DNA of 64,000 nt. It comes from a phage. The stretch lies in the sequence record PZ445448.1; one strand, written 5' to 3'. Of the stretch, positions 11,959 through 25,367 are shown piece after piece; positions within the stretch are counted from its first letter, which is position 1, and each line of letters begins with the position of its first letter. A model generated the notes under the pieces. It did no database searches. It saw only the letters and a list, made by a program, of their open reading frames with translations, and was not told where the DNA came from. The position numbers and the translations under genes were made by a program.

Positions 11959-12406
11959 TACTGTAAAGGGAGATTTAATCTCCCTTTTTAAGAGCGGTGC
12001 TGGTCACCTAATCCACGGTTGTAACTGCTTCCACACAATGGGTAAGGGCATAGCAAAACAGATTGCCCGTGAGTTTCCTCAAGCATTGTCAGCCGACAAA
12101 GAGACCAGACACGGTTGCCTAAGTAAACTGGGTGCGTTCTCCCGATGGGAGCACTTATCTCCGAGAGGTATTGTCTACGGAATCAATCTGTATACTCAGT
12201 TCTACCCAGGGCCTAATGCTGAATATTTCTCAATCCTGAAAGGCTTTGAGCTAGTCAATGAGGTATTCGAGGGATCGACTTTACCATTCTACATCCCTAA
12301 GATCGGGTGCGGCATAGGCGGTTTGAAGTGGGAGCACGTAGAGGACGTTATTAACCTCGCCACTTTTGATATAGATATTATCGTGGTGGAGTACAAAGAG
12401 TGTTGA
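11948..12406 (+). CDS. macro-domain-like protein (ADP-ribose binding/processing)
   Basis: GDLISL...HLIHGCNCFHTMGKGIAKQIAREFP resembles macro domain VNAAN...GGGV..AI core. Confidence 0.45.
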   Translation: MIIDTVKGDLISLFKSGAGHLIHGCNCFHTMGKGIAKQIAREFPQALSADKETRHGCLSKLGAFSRWEHLSPRGIVYGINLYTQFYPGPNAEYFSILKGFELVNEVFEGSTLPFYIPKIGCGIGGLKWEHVEDVINLATFDIDIIVVEYKEC

Positions 12407-12431
12407 CAGCCGACTTTTGAGATGGTATAGT
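12403..12431 (+). promoter_or_regulatory. sigma70-like promoter
   Basis: TTGACA-17 bp-TATAGT overlapping macro gene stop. Confidence 0.5.
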
Positions 12432-12462
12432 CACCACAACGATTGAGAGAGGGAGCACCACT

Positions 12463-12663
12463 ATGGAGACTAAAATCTTAATTCTGGCTGTGATAGATAC
12501 GACCGAAGGGGCCGTGTTCGAATCTGCAGGAGGGTATTTCTACCTGCCCTACGGAAAAATAACTTCCGAACCGAGTAAAGATTCAATCCTTAAAGTGTTC
12601 CCTTGTGCTTTCTGGCTGGAGATTCTAGTAGAAGATTGCAGAGGATTGGGGAGAGAATTATGA
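12463..12663 (+). CDS. hypothetical protein
   Basis: 66-aa ORF with SD agagaggg. Confidence 0.35.
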   Translation: METKILILAVIDTTEGAVFESAGGYFYLPYGKITSEPSKDSILKVFPCAFWLEILVEDCRGLGREL

Positions 12664-12854
12664 GAAACAAGAAAGAGCTTTATTCTGGCGAGTGGATCAA
12701 CGATCAACAGGTCGGAGAGGTAACCTGCTTCCGGTGTTTTACTCGGTACAATCTTAAAACTGCACCAAAAAGTGTTCCAAAGACTGACGGTTATTACATA
12801 AAAGAACCTCATTGCCCAAAATGTAAATGCCGATTGTACTGGAGCAATCTATAA
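12660..12854 (+). CDS. small zinc-ribbon protein
   Basis: CFRC ... CPKCKC pairs; SD ggggagag before ATG 12660. Confidence 0.5.
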   Translation: MRNKKELYSGEWINDQQVGEVTCFRCFTRYNLKTAPKSVPKTDGYYIKEPHCPKCKCRLYWSNL

Positions 12855-12858
12855 GAGG

Positions 12859-12886
12859 TTGACATCTGAAAACTGCAGTGTATAGT
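12859..12886 (+). promoter_or_regulatory. sigma70-like promoter
   Basis: TTGACA-16 bp-TATAGT. Confidence 0.5.
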
Positions 12887-12917
12887 ATACGCATAAACTA
12901 ACAGAGAGCGATGTATT

Positions 12918-13109
12918 ATGGTAATTTTTAACCGGGATGGTATCATAGTTAGACAGCACCCGTTCCTTGAATACTATCAAATTGAGCAATGGTGCTACGG
13001 GGATTGCAGTCACTCCTATGGGCAAAGTTGGGGATATCGCACAGTTTTTGAATCAACAGACCTTGACAAAGTAAGACAGAAAGTTTTAGAACTTATTAAC
13101 AACAAGTGA
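12918..13109 (+). CDS. hypothetical protein
   Basis: 63-aa ORF. Confidence 0.45.
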   Translation: MVIFNRDGIIVRQHPFLEYYQIEQWCYGDCSHSYGQSWGYRTVFESTDLDKVRQKVLELINNK

Positions 13110-13118
13110 GTATGATAT

Positions 13119-13451
13119 ATGGTAACATTAGAAAGACGTAAAGCTATCGCCGCCACACTGGCAGACATCTTTTGGGATTGCAACTTAAAAGATACCAGAA
13201 ATTGTGGCGCATCTGTAGATGTATTATTCCCACGGCCCACCATTGTTGCAATGGGAAACCTGTTAAACGTAGTGTACGGAGCATGGGACAAAGAAGGTGG
13301 ATTCTATATCTGGCAACCTGACTACGGAGCCTGGAAAGAGGTAAGGGGTGCGGATGACTTTGGGCCTACAGTTGCTAAGATGGATGGCTGGGAAATTTAT
13401 GTTGGAAACGACATGAAGCTGAAAGGCGAGATTGTTTACTGGTTACCTTAA
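13119..13451 (+). CDS. hypothetical protein
   Basis: 110-aa ORF. Confidence 0.5.
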   Translation: MVTLERRKAIAATLADIFWDCNLKDTRNCGASVDVLFPRPTIVAMGNLLNVVYGAWDKEGGFYIWQPDYGAWKEVRGADDFGPTVAKMDGWEIYVGNDMKLKGEIVYWLP

Positions 13452-13471
13452 GAAAGTGCAGGAGATAAAGT

Positions 13472-13717
13472 ATGAACAAAGGGTGGACATTTGTAGACGG
13501 CGTTAAAAACATGCCTCTAGGAAAGTATATCGTAGCCATGGCTGATGAGGATGGCAATGTAGATTTCGGAGCTTGCGAGGTTGTTCTTGCAGGATCTGGT
13601 AACTATGTGAGTAAAACCGGGATAATTAACGGTCAGTTCTACTTTGATCACAACCCTGTTGTAGCGTATATGGCTATGCCAGAGTTCAAGTTCCCAAAGG
13701 AGGGTGCAGATGTTTAA
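13472..13717 (+). CDS. hypothetical protein
   Basis: 81-aa ORF; SD aggaga. Confidence 0.5.
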   Translation: MNKGWTFVDGVKNMPLGKYIVAMADEDGNVDFGACEVVLAGSGNYVSKTGIINGQFYFDHNPVVAYMAMPEFKFPKEGADV

Positions 13718-13907
13718 GCTTAAATCTGCATGGAACATCGCTGTGGGGGACGAGATCCGTATCCCAGGTGGAAAGACCATTATGAAGATATCTCGTATTG
13801 AGTACGAAGGTGACCGTGTATTCCACATCTTCGCAGAAGATGGTCGAGAAATTTATATACAGGCAGGTTCTCACATTTATATCCGTAAGAAAGGGGACGA
13901 CAAATGA
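13704..13907 (+). CDS. hypothetical protein
   Basis: 67-aa ORF; SD aaggaggg. Confidence 0.45.
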   Translation: MQMFKLKSAWNIAVGDEIRIPGGKTIMKISRIEYEGDRVFHIFAEDGREIYIQAGSHIYIRKKGDDK

Positions 13908-14233
13908 CAGAGATCATCATTTCAACTGCAGGGTATGTGTTCCTGACAATCATTGCACTGACTATTTTGGTGACAGTGTATGGGTTTGTTATCCTTCCTA
14001 TCCTTGAGACATTTAGTTTGTGTCGGTGTTGGAGAAAAGCTTACGGTCCACAACCATGGAAGGACTGGCCCCACCTGGTGCGCTTAGCGTTCTCTTATGC
14101 TTACGATCACTCCAGTAGTGCATGCATAACCGGATACCACGCCCACAACTGGAGCTGGGAAGGATTGAGGAAATGGAATGTTACAAAGACCATACCTCTA
14201 CGCATGTACAAACCTAAAAACAAAGACAGCTGA
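13904..14233 (+). CDS. membrane protein
   Basis: N-terminal hydrophobic stretch IISTAGYVFLTIIALTILVTVYGFVILPIL. Confidence 0.45.
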   Translation: MTEIIISTAGYVFLTIIALTILVTVYGFVILPILETFSLCRCWRKAYGPQPWKDWPHLVRLAFSYAYDHSSSACITGYHAHNWSWEGLRKWNVTKTIPLRMYKPKNKDS

Positions 14234-14269
14234 TACTTGAAAATTCCTGGCATATCAAGTGTAAGGGGG

Positions 14270-14730
14270 ATTTCTAAAATGGATTTCCTCCTTTTGATAT
14301 TTCACCGGGCTGGATATTTTAAAATTCTTAGAAAATCAGAAAATGGATCGAAAACTAAAATGGATTTTTCAGAGTAGGCGCGACAAGCTGAATAACTCAT
14401 CCTATCGTTTGCACCATATTCCAGGCCACCATTATAGATTTCCCACACATGCTAACCTCCCTCTACTAGAACTTCCTCCACTTGCCCTTAACCTTCTATG
14501 GTAACAATCTAACCACTATCTTGAAGTTGCGGTGCAGCTTTCCAAGTACTCGATCTACTTTTCATTTCATGGCTTGGATTTTCTGAAAATTTTTCTCGAT
14601 AAATTTCTCAGTACTCGATCTGTTTTTCGTTTTCTGAATCGGATTTTCTGGAAATCGTTCCGGATCTCGACCTGAAATTTTTGGGGACGAAATCGATTTT
14701 TCGTTTTCAGAAATGGATTTTTAAAATTTC
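14270..14730. repeat. iteron-like direct repeats in AT-rich noncoding region
   Basis: Repeated AAAATGGATTT and two ~50-bp copies AGTACTCGATCT..GGATTTTCTG(A/G)AAAT. Confidence 0.5.
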
Positions 14731-14868
14731 TATATGGGAATATTTTATGGGATACTGTTTTATAGGAAATTGTTACGGAGGGTAATTAGCATGCTAATTA
14801 AATTTATTAAATGCGAGGAGTTCTCATTTAGAATTTTGAATGATAATCATTCTCGTTTGCAGAATAAC

Positions 14869-14914
14869 GGGCAGGCCCGGTGATTGTCTCCCCCGTCACC
14901 GGTGCCTGCCGTCC
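14869..14914 (+). repeat. long palindromic hairpin; inverted-repeat copy A
   Basis: gggcaggcccggtga..tcaccggtgcctgcc; reverse complement of 14870-14894 matches 24494-24518 at 24/25. Confidence 0.6.
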
Positions 14915-15374
14915 TTTCGATAGGTATATTGTGCCACCTGGCGGGGCCGCTGTCAACACTTTTCAAAAAATTTTTCTAACCTGATGCGCTAACCGCTGCA
15001 ACCTGGCGGGGCCAGCCTGGCAGGACCTAACTGACCAGGTAGGAGAGAATGAAGGCTTGTAAACCTGGTGGGCCTATGCTATAGGACAGGTAACAATTGA
15101 AGAGGAGGTACAAAAATGAAAGGTAATGTGATCCCCTGGAAAATGTAGCTATTAATGACGCTGAGGCTATCGCCCTGGTTGAAAAGGCCATGGCGGGAGC
15201 GTTGGAACATAAAGAAGAGTACGAAAAAATGATGGTTAACCTGGTAGGGCGGCGGCAGGTGGATTCTATCATAAAAAATAATTTAAAATAATTGTTGACA
15301 ACCGGGGGAGTCCTGCTATTCTTACCCTACAAGGTGAACAACACCGCACTAACTAGTAAAGAGGATAAAAAATC

Positions 15375-15572
15375 ATGAACGCATACGGAATCAAAGTACG
15401 TCGCAACACTCGCCAGGTGGTCACCGATCAAGTGGTTTGCCTGGTGGATGTAACCATCAACAACGGGCAAGGCCTTTATAAATTTCGTCGCGGTCATAGC
15501 TATACCCTGCAACAGCTTAATCGTTGCGCCCTGACAAAAGGTCAGATCAATCACTGGTTTAATAAAAAATAA
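15375..15572 (+). CDS. hypothetical protein
   Basis: 65 aa; SD agaggataa; weak TTGACA promoter ~15295. Confidence 0.5.
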   Translation: MNAYGIKVRRNTRQVVTDQVVCLVDVTINNGQGLYKFRRGHSYTLQQLNRCALTKGQINHWFNKK

Positions 15573-15575
15573 GTA

Positions 15576-15604
15576 TTGACATACGCCCCGACACAAAATA
15601 TACT
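15576..15604 (+). promoter_or_regulatory. sigma70 promoter
   Basis: TTGACA-17 bp-TATACT. Confidence 0.6.
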
Positions 15605-15636
15605 GAAATCACAAAAGACACTAAGAGGATAAAATC

Positions 15637-16035
15637 ATGAAAACCACAACCTTTAATTTTGACAATGCCGACTTCTCTTTTTCTGATGTCAAGAACTGCC
15701 GCCGTGATCGTGGATTTTACAAGGCTTATAATCTGGTTGGCCTGGACGATGATAATAATTTGCACGAAGTAGCGGAGATCCGGTACTATGCCGCCGCCAG
15801 CGGTAACACTAACTACTGCGTTTTTTGGATACACGACAACAAGAACAATAAGTACGGTTATACTGGCGGCAAGGCGAGCGGTCACGGTTATGATAAAGCT
15901 AACGCAGCACTTGAGAGCGCATTAAATGCTATGGGGATCACTGCCAACGGCTGGATCTATGAAGAAGAGTTTTTGTCAGCACTTGCTGCCCACCTGGGGT
16001 ATAAAAAGCACATTGTGACATGCGCCCACGAATAA
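15637..16035 (+). CDS. hypothetical protein
   Basis: 132 aa; SD agaggataaaatc. Confidence 0.55.
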   Translation: MKTTTFNFDNADFSFSDVKNCRRDRGFYKAYNLVGLDDDNNLHEVAEIRYYAAASGNTNYCVFWIHDNKNNKYGYTGGKASGHGYDKANAALESALNAMGITANGWIYEEEFLSALAAHLGYKKHIVTCAHE

Positions 16036-16050
16036 AAAAAAAAAAAATTA

Positions 16051-16078
16051 TTGACACGCTGCAAAATTCAAGTAAACT
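16051..16078 (+). promoter_or_regulatory. sigma70 promoter with A-tract UP-like element and leader hairpin
   Basis: A14 run, TTGACA-16 bp-TAAACT, then hairpin ggcgggaaTGTttcccgcc (16089-16107). Confidence 0.6.
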
Positions 16079-16127
16079 ATACACAAAAGGCGGGAATGTT
16101 TCCCGCCAACACAAAGGAAAAAAGATC

Positions 16128-16523
16128 ATGAATAAGAACGTACGCCGCATCATGAACGAACTGGCAAACGATGAAAAAATTATTGATATGCATTTGGTCA
16201 ACATTTGCCGCCGTTGTGTAACATATAACAACCGCGCCGCAAAAGCGCGTGAGATGAACGCAAAAGGCACCTTAAAGCCCTTTCAGGTGGTTGTAAAATC
16301 TATAACCAGTGCAGCAGGCCAGGCGCATGACCACAACAACGGGAGCACTAATATTGATCCGTCTTACGTAATGAAACGGATCCGGACTTGCAAGAATAAA
16401 GAGCAGGTGTATAACGTCATAGATTGGCTGGACTCCCTGGGCGATGTGGTTTATAATAGGTTTTCTGCAGCTATCGAGATCCAGCTTGACAGACTGGACG
16501 GGAAAGTACTGAAAACTTACTAA
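16128..16523 (+). CDS. hypothetical protein
   Basis: Start at ATG 16128 after aaaggaaaaaagatc leader; track ORF starts upstream inside promoter. Confidence 0.55.
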   Translation: MNKNVRRIMNELANDEKIIDMHLVNICRRCVTYNNRAAKAREMNAKGTLKPFQVVVKSITSAAGQAHDHNNGSTNIDPSYVMKRIRTCKNKEQVYNVIDWLDSLGDVVYNRFSAAIEIQLDRLDGKVLKTY

Positions 16524-16524
16524 G

Positions 16525-16572
16525 TTTATTTTTAGATGGCCTTGACGCCAGGGCCATCAATAAAGTAAACTA
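16525..16572 (+). repeat. conserved ~45-bp hairpin element, copy 1
   Basis: tttatttttaGATGGCCTTGacgcCAGGGCCATCaataaagtaaact. Confidence 0.6.
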
Positions 16573-16602
16573 ATCCCAGTTAAGCTAAAAGGAGGCTTGA
16601 AG

Positions 16603-16722
16603 ATGAGCACTACACGCCAGCACACAAAGGTAACTATTATCGTTTGCATCATTGGTTATATCCTGGCGCAAATGTTGATGGGTAGCGCCAACGGTGTCGC
16701 AAAATTTTTCTTAAACTTTTAA
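16603..16722 (+). CDS. small hydrophobic peptide (39 aa)
   Basis: SD aaaggagg 7 nt before ATG; TM-like IIVCIIGYILAQMLMG; below ORF-track cutoff. Confidence 0.35.
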   Translation: MSTTRQHTKVTIIVCIIGYILAQMLMGSANGVAKFFLNF

Positions 16723-16750
16723 TTGACAAGCTAACTTAGATCGGTATACT
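16723..16750 (+). promoter_or_regulatory. sigma70 promoter with leader hairpin
   Basis: TTGACA-16 bp-TATACT; leader gggaaaacttccc. Confidence 0.6.
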
Positions 16751-16800
16751 AAACACATCAACGGGAAAACTTCCCAGAACACACAAAAGGAGAAAACACC

Positions 16801-17142
16801 ATGACCACTATGACCGCCGCAGAAAAAGCTATTCAGATCGCTGCCCTGAAAAAACAGATCGCAGACCTTGAGAATAAGATCGATAACTTTGAAATCGACG
16901 AGGACAAGTACGACGAAAACTATGATGAATGGTTAGACGAGATCTACGGCGAAATTATGATCGGAAACATTTCTTTTCTTCCGTCGCGTATCCTCAAGGA
17001 GCTAGATCCTATCGCTTACCGCTGCGGATTTAGCGACTACATCGACAGCCTGGATATTGAGGACGATGAAGAATACCAGGAATTACAGACAGAGTTGGAA
17101 GAAGCAAAAGAAGAGCTTGCGGAGCTGGAAGAAAACGAGTAA
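16801..17142 (+). CDS. highly acidic coiled-coil protein
   Basis: 113 aa, D/E-rich (DIEDDEEYQELQTELEEAKEELAELEENE). Confidence 0.55.
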   Translation: MTTMTAAEKAIQIAALKKQIADLENKIDNFEIDEDKYDENYDEWLDEIYGEIMIGNISFLPSRILKELDPIAYRCGFSDYIDSLDIEDDEEYQELQTELEEAKEELAELEENE

Positions 17143-17143
17143 G

Positions 17144-17190
17144 ATTATTTTTAGATGGCCTTGACTCCAGGGCCATCAATAAAGTAAACT
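17144..17190 (+). repeat. conserved ~45-bp hairpin element, copy 2
   Basis: Same stem GATGGCCTTG/CAGGGCCATC, loop ACTC. Confidence 0.6.
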
Positions 17191-17231
17191 TTATACTGTT
17201 AACACTGAACTAATGCATAGGAGTTAAAACC

Positions 17232-17477
17232 ATGGCAGCACTAATCACTAAATATTACGCCCCTACCAACACCAAAAGCGCCCGTATCATGGTAAAAGGC
17301 TTCGGACGTAAAAAGGTTTACACCTGGGATTATGCCTTAGACACGGAAGACAACTACACCAACGCGATGACAGATTTTATTAATGAGCTGAACACGCGGA
17401 TCTTGACAAATTATAAAATTACCGATATTGCCTATATAGGGGAAGGCGGGATCTGTTTTGTCGGTATCGTCAAATAA
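17232..17477 (+). CDS. hypothetical protein
   Basis: 81 aa; SD aggagttaaaacc. Confidence 0.5.
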   Translation: MAALITKYYAPTNTKSARIMVKGFGRKKVYTWDYALDTEDNYTNAMTDFINELNTRILTNYKITDIAYIGEGGICFVGIVK

Positions 17478-17488
17478 ACTGTTTTTTC

Positions 17489-17512
17489 GGTGGTCCTGGT
17501 AGCAGGGCCATC
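17489..17512 (+). repeat. diverged copy of hairpin element
   Basis: GGTGGTCCTG gtag CAGGGCCATC; stem kept through wobble-compatible changes. Confidence 0.45.
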
Positions 17513-17535
17513 TATAAAGATAGTTTATCAATACA

Positions 17536-17907
17536 ATGAAAGGAGAAAGTAACATGATCAGTGGGGCAAGTTTTATCATTGGCGCTATTGCTACGGCTTT
17601 AATTGTAAATAAGATCCAGGATAAAAAGGAAAGAGGAAGTACCGCCCTTGCAGAATATCCATTTTGGGCATTCAACGATAACGAAGATTATATTATAAAG
17701 TATAAAAATAAAGAAGGTGACCAAGTAACACCACGACCGATCCCGGCTTACAAAATGCAGGAAACACTATACCGCCTGGAGGCGGGTGGCGCAAAAATTG
17801 TAGACTTTTGGGGATACGACCACACAGATCAGGAAGTTATAAAGCGCCGTATCCGGGCTATTCAGGCCAATATTGAAGTTAGCAAGGGGGGAATATATGA
17901 AAATTAA
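17536..17907 (+). CDS. membrane protein
   Basis: N-terminal TM ISGASFIIGAIATALIV; SD aaaggagaaag. Confidence 0.5.
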   Translation: MKGESNMISGASFIIGAIATALIVNKIQDKKERGSTALAEYPFWAFNDNEDYIIKYKNKEGDQVTPRPIPAYKMQETLYRLEAGGAKIVDFWGYDHTDQEVIKRRIRAIQANIEVSKGGIYEN

Positions 17908-18094
17908 TTTCGAGAAAATTGTAAAGCGCCCTCATGATTCCGAAGAGCTGCCAGAACGCCGCCAGCGTAACAATAAACTGAATAAGCCAAAAAGGTTTGG
18001 GAAGATCTGGCGGAATCATTATGATCGTAAATTGCCGGGCCTACTTTTGGAACGTGAACGACAAGCGGAACGATACCGCCACAAAGACAAATAG
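17897..18094 (+). CDS. small basic protein
   Basis: Start at internal ATG after aagggggg SD; R/K-rich. Confidence 0.4.
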   Translation: MKINFEKIVKRPHDSEELPERRQRNNKLNKPKRFGKIWRNHYDRKLPGLLLERERQAERYRHKDK

Positions 18095-18099
18095 CAACC

Positions 18100-18130
18100 A
18101 ACGCCCCGCCATTGTGCGGGGCTTTTTATT
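18100..18130 (+). terminator. rho-independent terminator
   Basis: cgccccgcc attgt gcggggc followed by TTTTTATT. Confidence 0.7.
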
Positions 18131-18251
18131 TCTATCCTACGAATAGCGCCCCTGGTTGGCCCTGTAAGCGCCAAAAAGGCCCCCACCTATGCAATCGCCC
18201 CTTTAACCTGAAAACATCGCCCAGGGCCGTTTTATGGCGTTAAAAATATCA

Positions 18252-18279
18252 TTGACATCGTCAACAGGTTAGCTATACT
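18252..18279 (+). promoter_or_regulatory. sigma70 promoter
   Basis: TTGACA-16 bp-TATACT. Confidence 0.6.
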
Positions 18280-18311
18280 AACCACATCAAAGAGAGAAAG
18301 GAGTAAACGCC

Positions 18312-18572
18312 ATGCGTAAATTAAAAAATTTTGATAAAGTTGATGTTATCCTGAATAATTTTTACTACTGCAACAACAAGGCTATTTGGTGGCGTGATAG
18401 TTCCACCGATAAAGTCAAAGCGCGCTTTCTTCAGGGGCACTGGCAAGGCCGCCCAGTGATTAAAATCATGGGGCAATTGGTAGCGTTTAAAAATTGCCGC
18501 CGTGTTGATGACGTTGAGGAGATTTTAAACATTTTGCGCCACAATAATTTAAAAAATAGTGTTGACAAGTAA
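18312..18572 (+). CDS. hypothetical protein
   Basis: 86 aa; SD aaaggagtaaacgcc. Confidence 0.5.
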   Translation: MRKLKNFDKVDVILNNFYYCNNKAIWWRDSSTDKVKARFLQGHWQGRPVIKIMGQLVAFKNCRRVDDVEEILNILRHNNLKNSVDK

Positions 18573-18589
18573 ATCTCAATAAGTATAAT
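18562..18589 (+). promoter_or_regulatory. sigma70 promoter with leader hairpin
   Basis: TTGACA-16 bp-TATAAT; hairpin ggcgggaaaacttcccgcc. Confidence 0.65.
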
Positions 18590-18646
18590 TAAACACACAG
18601 GCGGGAAAACTTCCCGCCACTAACAAAGAAAACAGGAGAAAATATC

Positions 18647-19270
18647 ATGACCACCGTTAACATTACCACAGGTTACAATTTAGCTTTCGACGTGCTGACC
18701 GACGAACAAAAAGAAAAAGCCGTTGAAATGGTCCGCGAAAGAGAAGAACACAGCGGGGATAACTTTTTTGCAGAAAGTGTAATTGAAGACTATAAAGAAT
18801 ATATCTTTCCAGAGTATGGCCTTGAAGATACCGAAGTACATTGGTCCGGCTTTTGGTGCCAGGGCGACGGCGCATCAATCAGTGCGGAAAACGTGGATTT
18901 AGAAAAATTCTTGCGTAAAGTCAAGTCTCTGACTAAATTCCGCTCAATTCGTCACTTGTTCGGCACAATGCACGATGGCGAGCTATCCGCAAGTGTTGAG
19001 CGCGATCCATATAGCCGTTATAGTCACGAAAACACTGTAAGCGGGTACATCGATACTACATGGCTAGACCTGACCGCCAAACAAGAAAACAAAGTGGAAG
19101 ACCTGGAAGAACTGATCACCGAGACGGTACGGGAGCTATCCCGCAAGGTTTACGTAGACCTGGAGGAGGCCTATCTAGAACAGTTCACCGCAGAAAACCT
19201 GATCGGCCTTATCGAGGCCAATGATTGGCGGTTTGATGTCGATGAATATGGTGAGATGACTTTTTCATAA
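18647..19270 (+). CDS. hypothetical protein
   Basis: 207 aa acidic; SD aacaggagaaaatatc. Confidence 0.55.
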   Translation: MTTVNITTGYNLAFDVLTDEQKEKAVEMVREREEHSGDNFFAESVIEDYKEYIFPEYGLEDTEVHWSGFWCQGDGASISAENVDLEKFLRKVKSLTKFRSIRHLFGTMHDGELSASVERDPYSRYSHENTVSGYIDTTWLDLTAKQENKVEDLEELITETVRELSRKVYVDLEEAYLEQFTAENLIGLIEANDWRFDVDEYGEMTFS

Positions 19271-19278
19271 ATAAAGTG

Positions 19279-19306
19279 TTGCAATAACCTAAAAACCTGC
19301 TATATT
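19279..19306 (+). promoter_or_regulatory. sigma70 promoter with leader hairpin
   Basis: TTGCAA-16 bp-TATATT; hairpin gggggcaagacgtttgccccc. Confidence 0.6.
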
Positions 19307-19360
19307 AAAACTCAAGGGGGCAAGACGTTTGCCCCCACACAAAACAAAGAGGAAAACATC

Positions 19361-19741
19361 ATGAAAAACACTACTAAAGCTATTGACACTGTTATGTTTA
19401 ACCTGGTTACATTCCGTGAAGATATGAAAGATCTTCCACGTGAAACAGTGTGCGATCACATTGAAAACTATCGCAAACTAATCAAAGAGTTGCCTTTAAA
19501 ACGTGACCAGTATGCGGCTAACGCTATGCTTAACGCCATGATCAAAAAGATGATTCAGTGTGATTTAACTCTGGCCTATGATTATGCAGGTGGTCGTTTT
19601 GCAGTATACAATCAGCCCGTGCCTGGTATGAGCACCACCGAAGAATTGCACGCGTTAAATCTGAAACAAGATGTATGGGATAACATGCCCCGCGTGGTGG
19701 TGTGGGCAGAAAGCGGAAAGATTTACGGCGATAATTTTTAA
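19361..19741 (+). CDS. hypothetical protein
   Basis: 126 aa; SD agaggaaaacatc. Confidence 0.55.
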   Translation: MKNTTKAIDTVMFNLVTFREDMKDLPRETVCDHIENYRKLIKELPLKRDQYAANAMLNAMIKKMIQCDLTLAYDYAGGRFAVYNQPVPGMSTTEELHALNLKQDVWDNMPRVVVWAESGKIYGDNF

Positions 19742-19749
19742 TCAGGTAA

Positions 19750-19777
19750 CAGGCGGCATATTTGCCGCCTTATTGTT
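19750..19777 (+). terminator. rho-independent terminator
   Basis: ggcggca tatt tgccgcc then TTATTGTT. Confidence 0.55.
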
Positions 19778-19805
19778 AAACAGAACTGCAAAAGAGGTAC
19801 ATAGA

Positions 19806-20177
19806 ATGGAATTTATTATTTTGGCTGTAGTAGTTGCCTTGTTCAACGCCTGGATCGCTGGCAAGATAGGTAGATCCGCTTTTCTATGGTTTGTTATATC
19901 TATTTTCCTGGGAGTGGTTGCAACTATTGTATTGGTTATCCTTGCAATTGTTGACAAGGGCGATAATAGAAAGGGTAAAGTGTTTTCCGACCTGTATGAC
20001 GCACAAACGTTTGTCAACGCCTATTATAGTGATCTTCCAGTCTCCCTACGCTGCAGCCTGGCACAACAGGTTTTTGATGAGGCTAAAACCAGAGACCAAG
20101 CCCATGAGATATGTTTAACTGAAGCGGATCGCCTATTTGAGAGGAATAGAAAATATGTGGACCAGCCGTTTAAATAA
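19806..20177 (+). CDS. membrane protein
   Basis: Start at ATG 19806 (SD agaggtacatag); two hydrophobic segments. Confidence 0.5.
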   Translation: MEFIILAVVVALFNAWIAGKIGRSAFLWFVISIFLGVVATIVLVILAIVDKGDNRKGKVFSDLYDAQTFVNAYYSDLPVSLRCSLAQQVFDEAKTRDQAHEICLTEADRLFERNRKYVDQPFK

Positions 20178-20396
20178 CGCCACGTTAATTAATCCCTTTA
20201 GTGAAGATTTGAAGCCAGCCGCCTGGCGTGACGGATTCAATAACGAACGCTTTATTTTCAGGCCTGATCTTGAGGAATTTTATAACAATGGATCGAACAA
20301 CAGCGGAGATAATTTTTCTTGTGGTGTGCGTGGTGATAGGACTCCTGGGGGCCATTGTAAACCACGTCACTACTAACAGGAGGGAAGGGGGAGACG

Positions 20397-20516
20397 ATGA
20401 CAACCAAGGATAAGCCATGCGCTGATAAGGTGCGCCGTGTTATGGTATGGCTTGAGATTATCGCCCTTGAAATATTGTTAGGCGTAGGGATGTACTTTAT
20501 CGCTGTAAGTAACTAA
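20397..20516 (+). CDS. small hydrophobic peptide (39 aa)
   Basis: Strong SD aggagggaaggggga; TM-like VMVWLEIIALEILLGVGMYFIAV. Confidence 0.35.
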   Translation: MTTKDKPCADKVRRVMVWLEIIALEILLGVGMYFIAVSN

Positions 20517-20518
20517 GA

Positions 20519-20550
20519 GCGGCCCCCGATCATGGGGGCCTATCTTTTAA
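20519..20550 (+). terminator. rho-independent terminator
   Basis: ggcccccgatcatgggggcc then TATCTTTT. Confidence 0.6.
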
Positions 20551-20570
20551 AAAATTTTTCTTCCGGGGTG

Positions 20571-20598
20571 TTGCAATCCGGTCCGGAATGTGGATAAT
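20571..20598 (+). promoter_or_regulatory. sigma70 promoter with leader hairpin
   Basis: TTGCAA-16 bp-GATAAT; hairpin ggggagctaatcccc. Confidence 0.6.
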
Positions 20599-20654
20599 AA
20601 CAATCAACGGGGAGCTAATCCCCACCACCACAAAAACCAGAAAGGAGAAACAAA

Positions 20655-20855
20655 ATGAGCAACAATATCCGCGTTATTAACTTCAAAAAAGAAGAAAAAA
20701 TTGCCGTGCTGATTGACGGTCAAGAAATCTTCAAGGGCGACTATGAAGATCATCAAACGGCGATTAGTATCACTCGCGTGATTGGTTATCATAATTTCTA
20801 CCCCCAAGGCGCTGAGGCAGCAGTTAAACGAATCAAAGAGATTGTAGGCCTGTAA
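20655..20855 (+). CDS. hypothetical protein
   Basis: 66 aa; SD aaaggagaaacaaa. Confidence 0.55.
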   Translation: MSNNIRVINFKKEEKIAVLIDGQEIFKGDYEDHQTAISITRVIGYHNFYPQGAEAAVKRIKEIVGL

Positions 20856-20856
20856 A

Positions 20857-20905
20857 ATTTATTTTTAGATGGCCTTGACTTCAGGGCCATCGATAAAGTA
20901 AATTT
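20857..20905 (+). repeat. conserved ~45-bp hairpin element, copy 3
   Basis: Same stem GATGGCCTTG/CAGGGCCATC, loop ACTT. Confidence 0.6.
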
Positions 20906-20948
20906 AAACCCTGTTAAAATACCACGCAGTTAACAAGGAGTGATAGAC

Positions 20949-21248
20949 ATGTTTATCCAGGCTAATAATCTTTATTTCTTTGATGGTCAGATCGTAGATG
21001 GTGTGGAAGTGGAGATCACCGGGTGCCCTGGCGGTCAGGCTATGACTTTTCGGAATAATGCCTTTGATGATTCTCATATCGTTATGAGAATGGAAGTTAC
21101 GAAGCTGGACGACAAGAAAACACTTATTGACTATTCTGTGAAAGATCATCCAGACTACCGCATGATCCATGGTGATTTGTGCATTGTTGACCGTGACAAG
21201 GTGGGCGGCATTGTGATCGCTATTGTGAACGATGTTTTCTCAAACTAA
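20949..21248 (+). CDS. hypothetical protein
   Basis: ATG 20949 with SD aaggag 8 nt upstream. Confidence 0.5.
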   Translation: MFIQANNLYFFDGQIVDGVEVEITGCPGGQAMTFRNNAFDDSHIVMRMEVTKLDDKKTLIDYSVKDHPDYRMIHGDLCIVDRDKVGGIVIAIVNDVFSN

Positions 21249-21265
21249 TTTCAGCAGGCGATTTT

Positions 21266-21616
21266 ATGAAAGTCAAACTATATTACCTTAATGAGCTTAA
21301 CCCCCTTGCCCAGGTCCGCGCCCTAGCTAATACCTTGATTTGTGAGAAATCTGTATATTGTGTTGAGCTTAACGCCATGCGTGAACGTCTCAAAGGTGGT
21401 TACTTTGACATCCATGCTGCAATCAACGGCCTGAATATGGAATTTATACGCTTACGTAACAGCCGCCGGAATCTGGCAAGAATGGAACAAGATCCGGCCC
21501 ACCTTCGTAAGCTGGTTATTGAAAATCATCTGATGTTTAATGCCGAGGGTGATTATTACCATTTTCACCGCAAACGCTGGTACCGTGGCGGCAATACAGG
21601 CAAGAATGCAAAATAA
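21266..21616 (+). CDS. hypothetical protein
   Basis: 116 aa basic ORF. Confidence 0.5.
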   Translation: MKVKLYYLNELNPLAQVRALANTLICEKSVYCVELNAMRERLKGGYFDIHAAINGLNMEFIRLRNSRRNLARMEQDPAHLRKLVIENHLMFNAEGDYYHFHRKRWYRGGNTGKNAK

Positions 21617-21650
21617 GGCCCCTAGCAGGGCCTGCAGCAATATAATCACA

Positions 21651-21684
21651 TAAAGGCCATGCGGTTGCATGGCCTTTATTATTT
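21651..21684 (+). terminator. rho-independent terminator
   Basis: aaaggccatgc ggtt gcatggccttt then ATTATTTT. Confidence 0.7.
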
Positions 21685-21733
21685 TGGCGTTACAACGGCA
21701 TACGGGGCGCTTAAAAAATTTTTAAAGAAGTAC

Positions 21734-21761
21734 TTGCATCATTCCCGACAATATGGATAAT
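21734..21761 (+). promoter_or_regulatory. sigma70 promoter with leader hairpin
   Basis: TTGCAT-16 bp-GATAAT; hairpin gggggaggccccc. Confidence 0.6.
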
Positions 21762-21818
21762 AAGAGTTGTCGAGGGGGAGGCCCCCAATCGTTGACCAGA
21801 TAGATAGGAGTTAAAATC

Positions 21819-22103
21819 ATGGCTATTGTTACCGCTGGCGATGTAGTAGAAATGGAAGCAAAATACTTAAAAGCGGGTATGCACATCCTACGGAATGATC
21901 AAGAGTTATTATTAACGATGGTTGACTATAATCACGGCCAGGATTATCCAAGCATCGACTACTTTTTTGAGTATGTTGATGAAGAGTTGAAAGAGGATGA
22001 GGCCTATTGCGGTGAGTTCTGCAACTTCTTTTGTCCTGATGAGGTTGTAAAGGTTATTTATCAACCTGGCGTAGCTTTCCCGCTGCACGCTATCAATAAA
22101 TAA
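21819..22103 (+). CDS. hypothetical protein
   Basis: 94 aa acidic; SD ataggagttaaaatc. Confidence 0.55.
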   Translation: MAIVTAGDVVEMEAKYLKAGMHILRNDQELLLTMVDYNHGQDYPSIDYFFEYVDEELKEDEAYCGEFCNFFCPDEVVKVIYQPGVAFPLHAINK

Positions 22104-22158
22104 ACCTGGCGGGGCCGAAAAGGCCCCCAATTATGAAAATAAAGAGAGGCAAATCATC

Positions 22159-22392
22159 ATGATGGAACAAATTAAACGCGCCGAGGCTATTAATGGCAAC
22201 GTGATCTATTTTGTCAGCAAAAACGAAAAAGGCGTACCATATGCGGCAGTAATAGTACAACCTGACGGCGATTATTGGTTTACTGTGTACGGCGCTTATT
22301 CTTTTGGGCGTCCAGTGCATGATAAAATTTTGAAAGTAGCGAACCCTACCGGGAAGAATATCACAGCAGAAAAATTTTTTGAAAATAGTTGA
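22159..22392 (+). CDS. hypothetical protein
   Basis: 77 aa; SD aagagaggc. Confidence 0.5.
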   Translation: MMEQIKRAEAINGNVIYFVSKNEKGVPYAAVIVQPDGDYWFTVYGAYSFGRPVHDKILKVANPTGKNITAEKFFENS

Positions 22393-22416
22393 CATGACCA
22401 TATAAGACTGTAATAT
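22389..22416 (+). promoter_or_regulatory. sigma70 promoter with leader hairpin
   Basis: TTGACA-16 bp-TAATAT; hairpin gggggcaactaacccc. Confidence 0.6.
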
Positions 22417-22467
22417 ATAAATCAAAGGGGGCAACTAACCCCACCAACTACAAAGAGGATAAAAATC

Positions 22468-22647
22468 ATGGCTATTATTGCAAAGACTGAGATCGTAGGC
22501 TTAGATTCTATTCTCCTCGCATATGAGGAAGCTATAGAAATGTATGTGGTTTCCTATGGTGAGTATATCCGTGAATATAAATCTATTGATCTGGCTTTTG
22601 AATGTTATATCCGCCAGGTTAATAAAGCGTACGATGATTATCGTTAA
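22468..22647 (+). CDS. hypothetical protein (59 aa)
   Basis: SD agaggataaaaatc; below ORF-track cutoff. Confidence 0.4.
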   Translation: MAIIAKTEIVGLDSILLAYEEAIEMYVVSYGEYIREYKSIDLAFECYIRQVNKAYDDYR

Positions 22648-22653
22648 AATAGT

Positions 22654-22682
22654 TTGACAACAGCCATCTTACAAAGCATAAT
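22654..22682 (+). promoter_or_regulatory. sigma70 promoter with leader hairpin
   Basis: TTGACA-17 bp-CATAAT; hairpin ggcggtggaatggtccgcc. Confidence 0.6.
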
Positions 22683-22734
22683 ACATAAGGCGGTGGAATG
22701 GTCCGCCACCTGGAACAAAGAAGAGGTAAACACC

Positions 22735-22980
22735 ATGAAAAGCAATAAAGGTTATAACGGTTACAAAAACAAAACTCATTGGAATGTAAGCCTTTGGATT
22801 AATAACGATGAGTCATTGTACCGGTTGGCCCAAGGCTTTATTAACGCCAATGCTAATCGTAATGATGCGGCGCGGGATATGATGCTTTTTCTGGAGCTAA
22901 CCGGACAAGATAAGACCCCGGACGGCTTCAAGTACAGCACTACGGCGATCCGTGCCGCGATGGTTGGAATGAAACACTAA
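22735..22980 (+). CDS. hypothetical protein
   Basis: Start at ATG 22735 after agaggtaaacacc leader. Confidence 0.5.
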   Translation: MKSNKGYNGYKNKTHWNVSLWINNDESLYRLAQGFINANANRNDAARDMMLFLELTGQDKTPDGFKYSTTAIRAAMVGMKH

Positions 22981-23057
22981 AAGCACATAGCTGCCTTACC
23001 CTGGGGCTGTGGTAGCGGCCCCATGAATAAGGTTACTAACAGAAGAGAATAAACACC

Positions 23058-23162
23058 ATGAAACAGAAATTAATCGATGCAGTGATCTTGGTTATTGCCC
23101 TGGGTATTGGCCTGATTGCAACCATGTCTAATATGATCTTGTCTTCCAACGGTATCGGGTGA
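23058..23162 (+). CDS. small hydrophobic peptide (34 aa)
   Basis: SD agaagagaataaacacc; TM-like AVILVIALGIGLIATM. Confidence 0.35.
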   Translation: MKQKLIDAVILVIALGIGLIATMSNMILSSNGIG

Positions 23163-23171
23163 GGTTGGCAA

Positions 23172-23387
23172 ATGATCACTAACAAAACAGGCAAAACGGA
23201 ATTTTTACGCAACTTACAGATCGGCAAGCCTGAGATCTGGTACTGCACTAAAACACCACGTGACGAAATGAAAGACTTCACCGCCACGCTGCAACGGGTA
23301 AAGATATCTATCACGCAGAAAAAGGCCTTACTAGTGGTGGAAGGGGAGATCCCCCAAACCGTTGTTATAGTTGAGCGTACAGCATAG
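23172..23387 (+). CDS. hypothetical protein
   Basis: 71-aa ORF. Confidence 0.45.
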   Translation: MITNKTGKTEFLRNLQIGKPEIWYCTKTPRDEMKDFTATLQRVKISITQKKALLVVEGEIPQTVVIVERTA

Positions 23388-23478
23388 TTTAATTTATACA
23401 GATACCTGAAAATTAACCAACAAAGCATAAACAGGCGGTTACCGCCGCCTTAAACGTAGCAGAAAGAGGATAGACACA

Positions 23479-23763
23479 ATGAAAAAGATGATCGCAGTGG
23501 TTACCCTGGTTGTTGGACTTAATGCGCCTGTAATGGCTAAAGAGCTGGCAAAAGAGGTTAATCTAACGGATATTCATGCCGTCAATCAAATCGGGGTTAC
23601 TTATCGCTTATGCCTTGCCGCTAAAACTTTTAAGGACGGCACAACAGAGTACTACGGATTCGAGGGTATCCGGTGCGGTGAGCTTGCTCGCGACCTTAAG
23701 GAAGATCCAGACCTGGAGGATCTGCCCATAACCGTGAACGGAAAAACTTACGTGAACCGTTAA
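23479..23763 (+). CDS. secreted/periplasmic protein
   Basis: Signal-peptide-like MKKMIAVVTLVVGLNAPVMA; SD agaggatagacaca. Confidence 0.55.
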   Translation: MKKMIAVVTLVVGLNAPVMAKELAKEVNLTDIHAVNQIGVTYRLCLAAKTFKDGTTEYYGFEGIRCGELARDLKEDPDLEDLPITVNGKTYVNR

Positions 23764-23765
23764 CC

Positions 23766-23900
23766 ATGAGAAAGATAATTATTACCATGGGGATCGTGGC
23801 GGCAATGTTGGCGATCTTTCCCTTTATGGTTAGGTATGTGCTGATTAATGTTGTCCTGGTAGTCAGCGATCTGGTGTTATATATTAACTCATTGTTTTAG
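23766..23900 (+). CDS. small hydrophobic peptide (44 aa)
   Basis: ATG overlaps upstream stop; TM-like ITMGIVAAMLAIFPFMVRYVLINVVLVV. Confidence 0.3.
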   Translation: MRKIIITMGIVAAMLAIFPFMVRYVLINVVLVVSDLVLYINSLF

Positions 23901-23908
23901 GCGCGATA

Positions 23909-24100
23909 ATGACAGCGGAAGAAGTTAAAAAAGTACTGGCGGTACTGCGTTATCATAATCATTGCAAGGTGAAGAATGATCCTGATTATCTTGATTCATC
24001 CCTTGAAGAGGATACACTACAAGCCATAAGCAACATGCAAGAATTGCTTAAGCGTATGACAGAGAAAAACCGACCGGACTACATAGGGGGTAAAATATGA
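23909..24100 (+). CDS. hypothetical protein
   Basis: 63-aa ORF. Confidence 0.45.
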   Translation: MTAEEVKKVLAVLRYHNHCKVKNDPDYLDSSLEEDTLQAISNMQELLKRMTEKNRPDYIGGKI

Positions 24101-24408
24101 TCGCTATTACGCCAACCGTTTTAGATTGGTATCGGCAACGCATAGCGCCTCCGCTGGCTATCTTCAAAGATGCGGAAGCAAAACAACGCCGGATCTCAAT
24201 ACATGAGATCATCAACCTTAACGCTGGAGGCACACCATACCGCCCAGGACCTGGCCGTGAGATGGACAATACATTGGCGATCCTGAAGATACGCCGTAAA
24301 CGGTCCTCCCTTACGCTGGATTCATTACACACAATGCAGTCCCCGTTCCAGGTGACTGGGAAACGGATCGCCAGGTCCTGGACAAAGGCCAATGACCGGA
24401 CCGTATAA
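24097..24408 (+). CDS. hypothetical basic protein
   Basis: 103 aa, R/K-rich, ATGA overlap with upstream gene. Confidence 0.45.
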   Translation: MIAITPTVLDWYRQRIAPPLAIFKDAEAKQRRISIHEIINLNAGGTPYRPGPGREMDNTLAILKIRRKRSSLTLDSLHTMQSPFQVTGKRIARSWTKANDRTV

Positions 24409-24493
24409 ATAAAAAGTGTTTTGGTACTGATTTTGGGGTTGACTTGTTCGGCCCCTTTTGCTATTCTTATTAAACGGGCGGCACTTGGGAACA

Positions 24494-24518
24494 GGGGGAG
24501 ACAATCACCAGGCCTGCC
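24494..24518 (+). repeat. inverted-repeat copy B
   Basis: gggggagacaatcaccaggcctgcc = reverse complement of 14870-14894 with one mismatch. Confidence 0.6.
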
Positions 24519-24543
24519 TGTCATATAAGAACTATAAAAACCG

Positions 24544-24572
24544 TTGACATCTGCCAGGGGGTGGGGTAACAT
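24544..24572 (+). promoter_or_regulatory. sigma70 promoter with leader hairpin
   Basis: TTGACA-17 bp-TAACAT; hairpin ggggcaaaggtgccc. Confidence 0.55.
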
Positions 24573-24626
24573 TTATCTTGAAGGGGCAAAGGTGCCCACA
24601 CAACAACCAGAAGAGAGGAAAACACT

Positions 24627-24899
24627 ATGTCAAGCTGGATTAATCAAGAAGTCGAATCACGTTTTAATGCTATTTGGGATCTCATCGAAAAAGAAGACGG
24701 CACATCAAGCCCCTACCTCAACAATTTGGAATTCCATTTTGTGGAAGCGATGAACGCAGAACATGATCACGAAGGTGGTGCGGACGAGTTCGCTAAAGGG
24801 TATGGCTTCAACAATGCCAACGAAATGATCGAGGCGGTTGTACTCCAGGCTGAGGAAGATTATCAATTAAAAACGCTTGAATTCTGCCGCCGTAAGTAA
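24627..24899 (+). CDS. hypothetical protein
   Basis: 90 aa acidic; SD agagaggaaaacact. Confidence 0.55.
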   Translation: MSSWINQEVESRFNAIWDLIEKEDGTSSPYLNNLEFHFVEAMNAEHDHEGGADEFAKGYGFNNANEMIEAVVLQAEEDYQLKTLEFCRRK

Positions 24900-24959
24900 T
24901 AAGATAATGACACGGGCCGGGAGGCCCACTAATCAGAACCACACAAAGAGGTAAACATC

Positions 24960-25223
24960 ATGAAACGTCTTGATCAGCTTAAACTAGTTCAGTACATGGC
25001 CTACAAAGTTCTTGAAGTCCAAAAAGGTAGCAAAAAAGAGGTTTGCGAGAAAGCATATAAGATCTTTACCCGTAAAAAAGATGATTGGATGTTACGCCAG
25101 ACCAAAAAAGCCGATATCCTGGGATACCTGGAAGAAGAGATCCGACTTGAAGAACAAGAAGAGATCCGCCGTAGTGAGGCAGATTATCAGGCAGCTTGGG
25201 AAAACTGGATGAGCAACAAATAA
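24960..25223 (+). CDS. hypothetical protein
   Basis: 87 aa; SD agaggtaaacatc. Confidence 0.5.
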   Translation: MKRLDQLKLVQYMAYKVLEVQKGSKKEVCEKAYKIFTRKKDDWMLRQTKKADILGYLEEEIRLEEQEEIRRSEADYQAAWENWMSNK

Positions 25224-25289
25224 TACAACAAGTTACATGGTCAGGGGCAATAAAGCCCCTTGATCACATAAAAATTATGCTATCCCTGG

Positions 25290-25318
25290 TTGACAGGGAT
25301 CGGCAGTTTTGCTATATT
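25290..25318 (+). promoter_or_regulatory. sigma70 promoter
   Basis: TTGACA-17 bp-TATATT. Confidence 0.6.
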
Positions 25319-25367
25319 CTTTTTTGAAGGGAAGTTGTAAGAAAATTAACTAAGAGGTAAAAACACC

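Follow-up and report, generated by a model that had tools for sequence, protein, structure and literature searches.

rV5-like phages have been isolated widely and serve as agents against pathogenic E. coli. They carry a large block of small genes, presumed to be early, for which no post-transcriptional signals have been described. We analysed a 64-kb stretch of one such phage (record PZ445448.1; hereafter the window), a Vequintavirus, i.e. an rV5-like E. coli myophage, in which four of these small genes are followed, just past their stop codons, by copies of one hairpin element. The question raised by this locus is what such an element does. A first-pass annotation, made from the sequence alone, had proposed an RNA-level element (a processing site or a protein-binding hairpin) or a hairpin-embedded promoter. 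We observed that the element is a conserved two-stem RNA structure, formed by the sense strand only. As to its role, we tentatively favour, at slightly less than an even chance, a signal for processing the sense RNA or protecting its 3' end, probably cut by RNase III and overlaid on a promoter, which would make it a boundary of gene cassettes resembling the promoter-early stem-loop (PeSL) cassettes of T4-like phages.

The hairpin is the upper part of a two-stem RNA fold

The window contains exactly four copies of the element, of about 55 nt each and all on the + strand (c1 to c4, Table 1). The hairpin reads GATGGCCTTG-ACGC-CAGGGCCATC in c1 (16535-16558); it carries the loop ACTC in c2 (17154-17177) and ACTT in c3 (20868-20891), and the diverged copy c4 reads GGTGGTCCTG-GTAG-CAGGGCCATC (17489-17512). 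A pattern search returned these 4 sites (8 matches over both strands) against 0.02 expected from shuffles, bearing out all four places behind stop codons that had been reported at first pass. The hairpin, that is the upper stem, starts 11, 11, 11 or 12 nt past the TAA stop of a + strand open reading frame (ORF).

The first-pass annotation had described an element of about 45 bp with a 10-bp stem, some T-G pairs of which are valid only as G-U pairs in RNA of the + strand. Indeed, the upper stem of c1-c3 contains one T-G pair, and c4 differs from these copies at three positions of the 5' arm (A>G, C>T, T>C), where pairing is kept solely if G-U pairs of the + strand are allowed. The 10-bp stem therefore stands as the upper stem, but the true unit is longer, since a lower stem had been missed: 10-13 bp are formed between the T-rich flank on the 5' side and the A-rich one, AAAGTAAAC, on the 3' side. 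The full fold, of about 22 bp, has two helices, this lower stem and the upper stem of 10 bp; they are separated by an internal loop of 2 nt (5') and 3 nt (3'), and a tetraloop closes the upper one. The base of the lower stem takes in the stop codon of the upstream gene or lies right at it.

Folding was carried out on 71-nt windows, with z-scores calculated against 200 shuffles. In such conditions, the sense strands fold with -23 to -28 kcal/mol (z -5 to -6) and none of the 200 shuffles folds equally well, whereas the antisense folds are far weaker (-13 to -20 kcal/mol, z about -2). A covariance model derived from the family and run over the window found only the four copies, with 73-79 bits on the + strand and 34-45 bits on the - strand; the next match has E=1.7. 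The fold is specific to the sense strand because of its G-U pairs.

The fold is maintained by compensatory changes in related phages

We then compared the element with its counterparts in 12 further Vequintavirus records, in the phi92-like phage KKE7M and in two IMG/VR contigs. The 35 distinct variants obtained, which represent 15 genomes or contigs, all adopt the same two-stem minimum free energy (MFE) fold; a more divergent copy from contig L012, whose loop has 5 nt and whose internal loop has 4 nt, keeps it as well. When 32 variants were aligned (alignment A2, from which three indel-bearing variants were left out), 92.9% of the cells fell in standard pairs, compared with 36-55% when the 3' partners were slid by 1-3 columns. 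The upper stem is 100% paired in this alignment, with four one-sided, wobble-compatible changes.

Covariation in homologous phages, to which the first-pass annotation had pointed as a way of checking its proposal, was found in the lower stem. Four of its core pairs change on both sides, namely 11-57 (GC/AU/GU), 12-56 (UA/CG), 14-54 (UA/GU/AU) and 15-53 (AU/UA), and part of these compensatory changes is found among the c4 orthologs themselves, e.g. C-G versus U-A. By a rough hand estimate, the chance that four changed positions per 10-nt arm are exact partners that all re-pair is of the order of 1e-4. The idea of an RNA-level element is thus strongly supported as regards structure, by the strand specificity, the compensatory changes and the z-scores.

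The element is conserved far better than its loop and its flanks. Its 3' half CAGGGCCATCNATAAAG is invariant in all four copies, c4 included, of the genomes with ungapped elements; slight departures occur in copies with an extra base there and in L012. A BLAST search for the motif elsewhere found it in 120 phage records only, 119 of them rV5-like (usually with 3 detectable copies each) and the last one KKE7M. An IMG/VR scan with CAGGGCCATCNATAAAG gave 18 loci, just three of which, on two rV5-like contigs, contain the element, the rest being single chance matches. The flanking 81-aa and 113-aa proteins, used as tblastn queries, led to distant homologs in unrelated phages, without element-bearing relatives outside Vequintavirus and KKE7M. 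The covariance model revealed no additional diverged copies in the window, the KKE7M locus or the T7 early region, and the Rfam scan of 12000-29000 gave no match at the elements at E<=1. Analogous elements could not be singled out by an MFE scan of both strands in sliding 64-nt segments, which lacked specificity.

A host origin is rejected: none of 5,426 E. coli genomes gave a match, and the lone "plasmid" match is a phage genome. This record, CP057073.1, a 137.5-kb E. coli "plasmid" of PLSDB, has three copies of the element and looks like a mislabelled rV5-like phage genome. Likewise, 17 "Campylobacter phage" records (MG0656xx) share about 95% identity with rV5-like phages of E. coli and look like mislabelled genomes of this group.

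The element resembles the RNase III sites of the T7 early region

RNase III requires about two helical turns (~20-22 bp), and stacked stems are allowed (PMC1540722, PMC6212723). The 10-bp hairpin alone is too short, and only because of the lower stem, overlooked at first pass, does the RNase III site suggested there become credible. With 10 bp in the upper stem and 10-13 bp in the lower one, all copies and variants have the length that the enzyme needs. Internal loops limit RNase III to one cut, which leaves a protective 3' hairpin (PMC1540722; PMC6212723). An asymmetric internal loop, of the kind that confines cutting to one strand, is present in every copy; it measures 2/3 nt, its 3' side being 4 nt long in three variants.

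For comparison we folded five intergenic hairpins of the T7 early region (R0.3, R0.5, R1, R1.1 and R1.3), the identity of R1.1 being confirmed by its GCAA loop (PMC1540722). The T7 sites and the element have a common plan: lower stem, asymmetric internal loop, upper stem and short loop. As folded, the upper stem of the T7 sites measures 9-10 bp, or 13 bp in R1.3, and their apical loop 3-5 nt; the internal loop is 2/3 in R1, the same as in the element, and 4/5 in R0.5, a site in which the stop codon lies inside the lower stem. In both phages, these are sense-strand hairpins with G-U pairs, placed in intergenic spacers just past stop codons, and they form a small paralogous family with sequence in common inside one genome. 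Differences were also observed. The internal loop of the element is smaller (2/3 versus mostly 4/5), its lower stem is longer and nearly pure A-U, its proximal box is only partly canonical and a sigma70-like promoter is overlaid on its hairpin; its four copies are clustered, whereas the T7 sites are spread over the genome, and its cleavage is a prediction.

Read from the loop, the pairs of T7 R1.1 are C-G, U-A, U-G, A-U, C-G, U-G, G-C, G-C, A-U and A-U, and those of the element are G-C, U-A, U-G, C-G, C-G, G-C, G-C, U-A, A-U and G-C. In R1.1 this U-A/U-G step forms the canonical distal box, which gives optimal RNase III binding (PMC1540722). In c1-c3 the G-C closing pair is followed by U-A and U-G, a distal box identical to that of R1.1, and the T-G pair spotted at first pass is the U-G of this box; c4 has U-A then C-G, as in R0.5. 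In the proximal box the preferred pairs are G-C, A-U/U-A, A-U and A-U/U-A, and G-C or C-G at positions 2 and 4 is an antideterminant (PMC1540722). When the register of R1.1 is assumed, position 2 of the element is A-U and position 4 an unpaired A/A, so that both antideterminants are absent. By analogy with the T7 sites, we infer that host RNase III would cleave the element at its internal loop.

Three of the copies overlap a putative sigma70 promoter

The first-pass annotation had also noted TTGAC with TAAACT about 18 bp downstream. This holds for c1-c3, in which TTGACN-N18-TAAAYT matches the consensus at 9/12 positions with an 18-bp spacer. TTGAC is invariant in c1-c3, including its two unpaired loop bases (AC), with TTGAT in the L012 copy as sole exception; loop positions 3-4 are the most variable of the element (GC, TC, TT, AC, CC, AT). 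TAAACT is also the -10 box of a consensus-type cassette at 16051-16078. In KKE7M, nearly every intergenic gap consists of TTGACA-N16/17-(-10), 8-13 nt, a GGCGGGAA...TTCCCGCC hairpin, a Shine-Dalgarno sequence (SD) and ATG, and the rV5-type element fills the exact promoter slot, 11 nt ahead of the GC hairpin. The invariant TTGAC, the use of TAAACT in that cassette and this promoter slot argue for a sigma70 promoter in c1-c3, which is supported but unproven.

A promoter cannot explain everything, because c4 keeps the fold without a -35 box and one divergent copy, c1 of L012, breaks the spacing (15 or 20 bp), which counts against a promoter as the conserved function. Moreover, conservation is highest in CAGGGCCATCNATAAAG, which corresponds to the promoter spacer and would be unconstrained under a promoter model. 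The hairpin-embedded promoter of the first pass is therefore retained in part, for c1-c3.

The element-bearing gaps contain no consensus-strength promoter (at least 10/12) and no canonical terminator according to our promoter/terminator scan, which finds both frequently nearby. As already noted at first pass, the element is not a canonical intrinsic terminator: a T-run precedes the hairpin and an A-run follows it, on both strands, so that there is no U-tract. The hairpin is followed by AAUAAAG, and past the lower stem the sequence is not U-rich. Intrinsic terminators are, like the element, GC-rich hairpins directly past a gene, but the U-tract is missing here, and the elements are absent from our terminator scan and from the terminators annotated in EdH4 and rV5.

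Several other signals were noticed in these intergenic gaps. In c1-c3, a short, conserved box C(A/T)GTTAA stands 7-13 nt past TAAAYT (16572-16584, 17191-17203 and 20905-20917), at the would-be transcript start, and is not found in c4. A second recurrent cassette occurs in the window at 16051-16107, 16723-16775 and 18562-18618, and consists of TTGACA-N16/17-TAnAnT, 8-13 nt, the GGCGGGAA...TTCCCGCC hairpin, an SD and ATG. This design dominates the intergenic gaps of KKE7M, and it resembles a subclass of PeSLs or an mRNA stabiliser acting at the 5' end. These cassettes occupy the same kind of intergenic slot as the element, but their promoter is the consensus TTGACA-N16/17 and their hairpin lies past the -10 box, hence at the 5' end of the transcript, and has no lower stem. 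In KKE7M (locus L022, 6330-6363 and 9232-9258), the leader past the GC hairpins reads CCGCCATCAATAAAGAG and has CCATCAATAAAG in common with the 3' half of the rV5 element, by common origin or by chance. Finally, two other hairpins of the window enclose a -35 box, one at 24435-24467 (GGGGTTGACTTGTTCGGCCCC then TTTTGCTATTCT; terminator-like, with the T-run over an extended -10) and one at 25284-25318 (CCCTGGTTGACAGGG then TGCTATATT); they look like coupled terminator-promoter units.

The copies mark the borders of recombining gene cassettes

PeSL cassettes were described in the T4-like phages RB49/phi1, PST and nt-1 (Arbiol 2010, PMC2839356; Comeau 2014, PMC4122927). In RB49/phi1 they consist of a stop codon in an AT-rich stretch, -35 and -10 boxes, a G-T-paired stem-loop lying mostly between or over the boxes, an SD and ATG; they cluster among ORFans and recombine, which inserts or deletes these genes (PMC2839356). 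The element is likewise an intergenic unit: it begins at a stop codon within AT-rich sequence and extends as far as the SD and start codon of the next gene, and its upper stem, containing G-T pairs, covers the -35 box and most of the spacer. It is located among small genes and ORFans, and its copies recombine, deleting or inserting cassettes.

We folded the PeSLs of RB49 and observed a 7-8-bp stem that fills the spacer of TTGACA-N17-TATAAT, with no U-tract. The element differs from them by its 10-bp stem over the -35 box, by a non-consensus promoter (9/12, 18-bp spacer) that is absent from one copy, and by belonging to a phage that is not T4-like. Above all, an extra covarying lower stem joins its AT-rich stretch with the -10 region; the RB49 PeSLs have no comparable 10-13-bp lower stem, a few of them showing 5-7 flanking pairs.

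The copies recombine with each other. Phages ime and ECP32 and contig L011 are devoid of the 619-bp c1-c2 segment and have a single hybrid element left, which is flanked upstream as c1 is and downstream as c2 is. KKE7M, which belongs to another subfamily, contains a promoter, the 113-aa ORF and the element at 93.7% identity to window 16722-17194, and the borders of this cassette are the promoter (window 16722) and the end of the element (17194). The copies, because they are near-identical, act as homologous recombination sites that delete, insert or transfer cassettes. An N4-type single-stranded DNA hairpin promoter and an integron attC-like site were set aside, since the deletions are consistent with simple homologous recombination between repeats of 50 nt; no matching polymerase (N4-type) or integrase (attC) was noticed, and none was searched for. 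Loop variants tend to be common to the copies of one genome (loci L001-L030; ACAC/ACAC/ACTC, or ACTC in all three), which indicates gene conversion.

A proposed mechanism and its alternatives

In the reading that we tentatively favour, the co-directional block of small genes would be transcribed through the element, which would then form the interrupted helix of about 22 bp in the RNA. Read-through transcription across the elements is inferred from the gene order and from the fact that no terminator separates the elements from the promoters upstream. Host RNase III would recognise this helix as it does the T7 early-region sites, and would make a single cut, at the internal loop on its 3' side. 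With T7 R1.1 as a guide (its product has 28 nt and its helix 11 bp), cleavage is predicted about 13 nt past the tetraloop, just behind the invariant A-U of the internal loop and within the conserved 3' half, i.e. between 16561 and 16562 in c1, 17180 and 17181 in c2, 17515 and 17516 in c4, and 20894 and 20895 in c3. The upstream cistron would thereby keep a protective 3' hairpin and be stabilised, and the cut would disconnect the downstream gene from read-through RNA. As DNA, c1-c3 would act as a sigma70-type promoter preceded by a T-rich region, its -35 TTGAC spanning upper stem and loop and its -10 TAAAYT falling in the lower stem's 3' arm, and the downstream gene may be re-expressed from this promoter with its own start. 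The whole would be a PeSL-like composite boundary of gene cassettes.

A more speculative extension, which we consider doubtful, is that these 55 nt are read twice, as a promoter in DNA and as an RNase III site in RNA, and constitute a self-contained transcriptional insulator. RNA reading through from upstream would be severed and capped at its 3' end, and expression of the downstream gene would depend solely on transcripts initiated within the element, which are free of the hairpin. Cassettes might then be swapped between subfamilies, from rV5-like to phi92-like phages, with their neighbours undisturbed.

Several points weigh against the RNase III reading with its overlaid promoter. The element has no sequence homology to the T7 sites, so that the likeness is an analogy, and with the register assumed above, positions 1 (U-A, not G-C) and 3 (G-C, not A-U) of the proximal box are non-preferred. 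Our literature search yielded no transcriptome of any Vequintavirus and no transcript-end data for rV5-like phages. The covariation comes from few independent events (mainly c4 versus c1-c3, two c4 lineages, and c1 versus c3), and gene conversion between copies inflates the cell counts. Promoter matches of at least 9/12 are common by chance (59 found versus 37 expected in 17 kb), the -35/-10 spacer is 19 bp in two variants, and c4, equally conserved without a -35 box, argues against the promoter as the conserved function. A count of just four, all inside 4.4 kb of a genome of about 137 kb, is odd for a general processing system. Lastly, a lab-evolved rV5 derivative is devoid of c1 and c3, so that copies are dispensable in culture.

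The main rival, unlikely though it appears to us, is a PeSL-type promoter and attenuator without RNase III: the nascent stem-loop would lower read-through by pausing, non-canonical termination or blocking, and the embedded sigma70 promoter would restart transcription. PeSLs have the same anatomy as the element and an identical recombination behaviour, and one RB49 stem-loop lowers the expression of a downstream lacZ as strongly as rrnB T1 (PMC2839356). The RB49 stem-loops folded here are likewise devoid of a U-tract, and other hairpins containing a -35 box are present in the window (24435-24455 and ~25284-25300). However, this drop in lacZ cannot tell termination from RNA processing. In the element, an A-rich run lies past the hairpin on both strands in place of a U-tract, and neither our scan nor the GenBank annotators called a terminator. 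Attenuation also leaves unexplained the compensatory upkeep of a 10-13-bp second stem and of a ~22-bp helix, as well as the promoter-less c4, which is equally conserved.

The three remaining explanations are less likely. That the hairpin binds a phage or host protein other than RNase III, which would control the stability or translation of the flanking small genes, seems improbable. Its structure is conserved on the sense strand only, and the 3' half CAGGGCCAUCNAUAAAG and the internal-loop bases U20, A47 and U48 are conserved in sequence past pairing needs. Yet the apical loop, the usual protein contact, is hypervariable, the element is 31-45 nt ahead of the start codon and off the ribosome-binding site, and no candidate binding protein was identified. 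Still less probable is an element acting at the DNA level only, i.e. an ordinary sigma70 early promoter with a palindromic operator for a dimeric DNA-binding protein, used for instance in early shut-off. The inverted repeat GATGGCCYTG/CAGGGCCATC does lie over the -35 box and spacer, the classic operator position, and TTGAC is invariant. Nevertheless, every departure from symmetry is G-T on the + strand, i.e. A-C on the - strand, which an operator doesn't predict; the flanks covary, keeping complementarity rather than sequence, c4 has no -35 box, and both the folds and the covariance-model scores are asymmetric between the strands. Finally, we give very little credit to a functionless dispersed repeat, a remnant or hitch-hiker of cassette duplication with a hairpin upheld by gene conversion: the four copies confined to one 4.4-kb stretch, the loop variants common within genomes and the dispensability in the evolved lab strain would fit it, but conversion cannot create compensatory differences between c4 and c1-c3 or among c4 orthologs, and the element is far more conserved than its loop and flanks, in gaps of 77-94 nt kept in about 120 genomes.

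The element is an undescribed variant of known phage intergenic signals and involves no new principle; it is unannotated in the rV5 genome paper (PMC3606486) and in the GenBank records inspected. If it is a T7-like processing hairpin fused to a promoter, RNase III-type separation of cistrons would reach past T7-like phages, the poorly understood stem-loops of PeSL-type cassettes could be read as processing rather than termination signals, and phage engineering would gain a compact natural insulator part. If it is merely a composite of attenuator and promoter, the PeSL concept would be extended from T4-like to rV5-like and phi92-like phages.

Genomic context

Window 15500-21500 is 94-98% identical to many Vequintavirus genomes, the top match being phage isim (98.2%). 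GC skew and ORFs indicate + strand gene direction as far as ~28 kb. The counterpart block in rV5 is part of a long co-directional unit, "genes 10-1-238-164", composed of small genes of unknown function (PMC3606486). The next start codon follows 31-45 nt past the end of the lower stem, and the element is clear of the ribosome-binding site. The genes around the four copies are listed with the parts of the element in Table 1.

Table 1. Positions of the four element copies, of their parts and of neighbouring genes in the window
Feature	Position	Strand	Remarks
c1	16520..16574	+	fold -25 kcal/mol, z -6.1; covariance-model match 76.1 bits; promoter scan 9/12
c1 lower stem	16523-16532 / 16562-16571		
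c1 internal loop	16533-16534 / 16559-16561		
c1 upper stem	16535-16544 / 16549-16558		loop ACGC 16545-16548
c1 promoter-like boxes	16542-16547; 16566-16571		-35 TTGACG; -10 TAAACT
c1 upstream stop codon	16521-16523		TAA, at stem base
c2	17139..17193	+	fold -23.2 kcal/mol, z -5.0; 75.9 bits
c2 lower stem	17142-17151 / 17181-17190		one mismatch close to base
c2 upper stem	17154-17163 / 17168-17177		loop ACTC
c2 promoter-like boxes	17161-17166; 17185-17190		-35 TTGACT; -10 TAAACT
c2 upstream stop codon	17140-17142		
c4 (diverged)	17474..17528	+	fold -28.2 kcal/mol, z -5.8; 72.8 bits; no -35 box; four lower-stem pairs changed on both sides versus c1-c3
c4 lower stem	17474-17486 / 17516-17528		13 bp; internal loop UC / UAU
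c4 upper stem	17489-17498 / 17503-17512		loop GTAG
c4 upstream stop codon	17475-17477		
c3	20853..20907	+	fold -24.7 kcal/mol, z -6.0; 78.6 bits
c3 lower stem	20855-20865 / 20895-20905		
c3 upper stem	20868-20877 / 20882-20891		loop ACTT
c3 promoter-like boxes	20875-20880; 20899-20904		-35 TTGACT; -10 TAAATT
c3 upstream stop codon	20853-20855		
Gene upstream of c1	16128..16523	+	rV5 ORF194 homolog, function unknown; ORF list and related-phage annotation
c1-c2 cassette	16603..17142	+	39-aa ORF, sigma70 promoter with 5' hairpin, 113-aa ORF
39-aa ORF in cassette	16603-16722	+	
Strong sigma70 promoter in cassette	16723-16750	+	
5' hairpin behind cassette promoter	16762-16775	+	
113-aa ORF in cassette	16801-17142	+	
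81-aa ORF between c2 and c4	17232..17477	+	rV5 ORF191 homolog
Gene downstream of c4	17554..17907	+	rV5 ORF190 homolog
Gene upstream of c3	20655..20855	+	rV5 ORF179 homolog
Gene downstream of c3	20949..21248	+	ORF list and related-phage annotation

Two further features of the window were noticed. A C-rich stretch at 18125-18245, between a terminator (18103-18122) and a promoter (18252-18279), contains just two short ORFs (43-49 aa) and has an odd composition for this AT-rich region. A very stable GC-rich hairpin (about -32 kcal/mol) is present at 14870-14910, with a related second copy at ~24474-24524, about 9.6 kb downstream.

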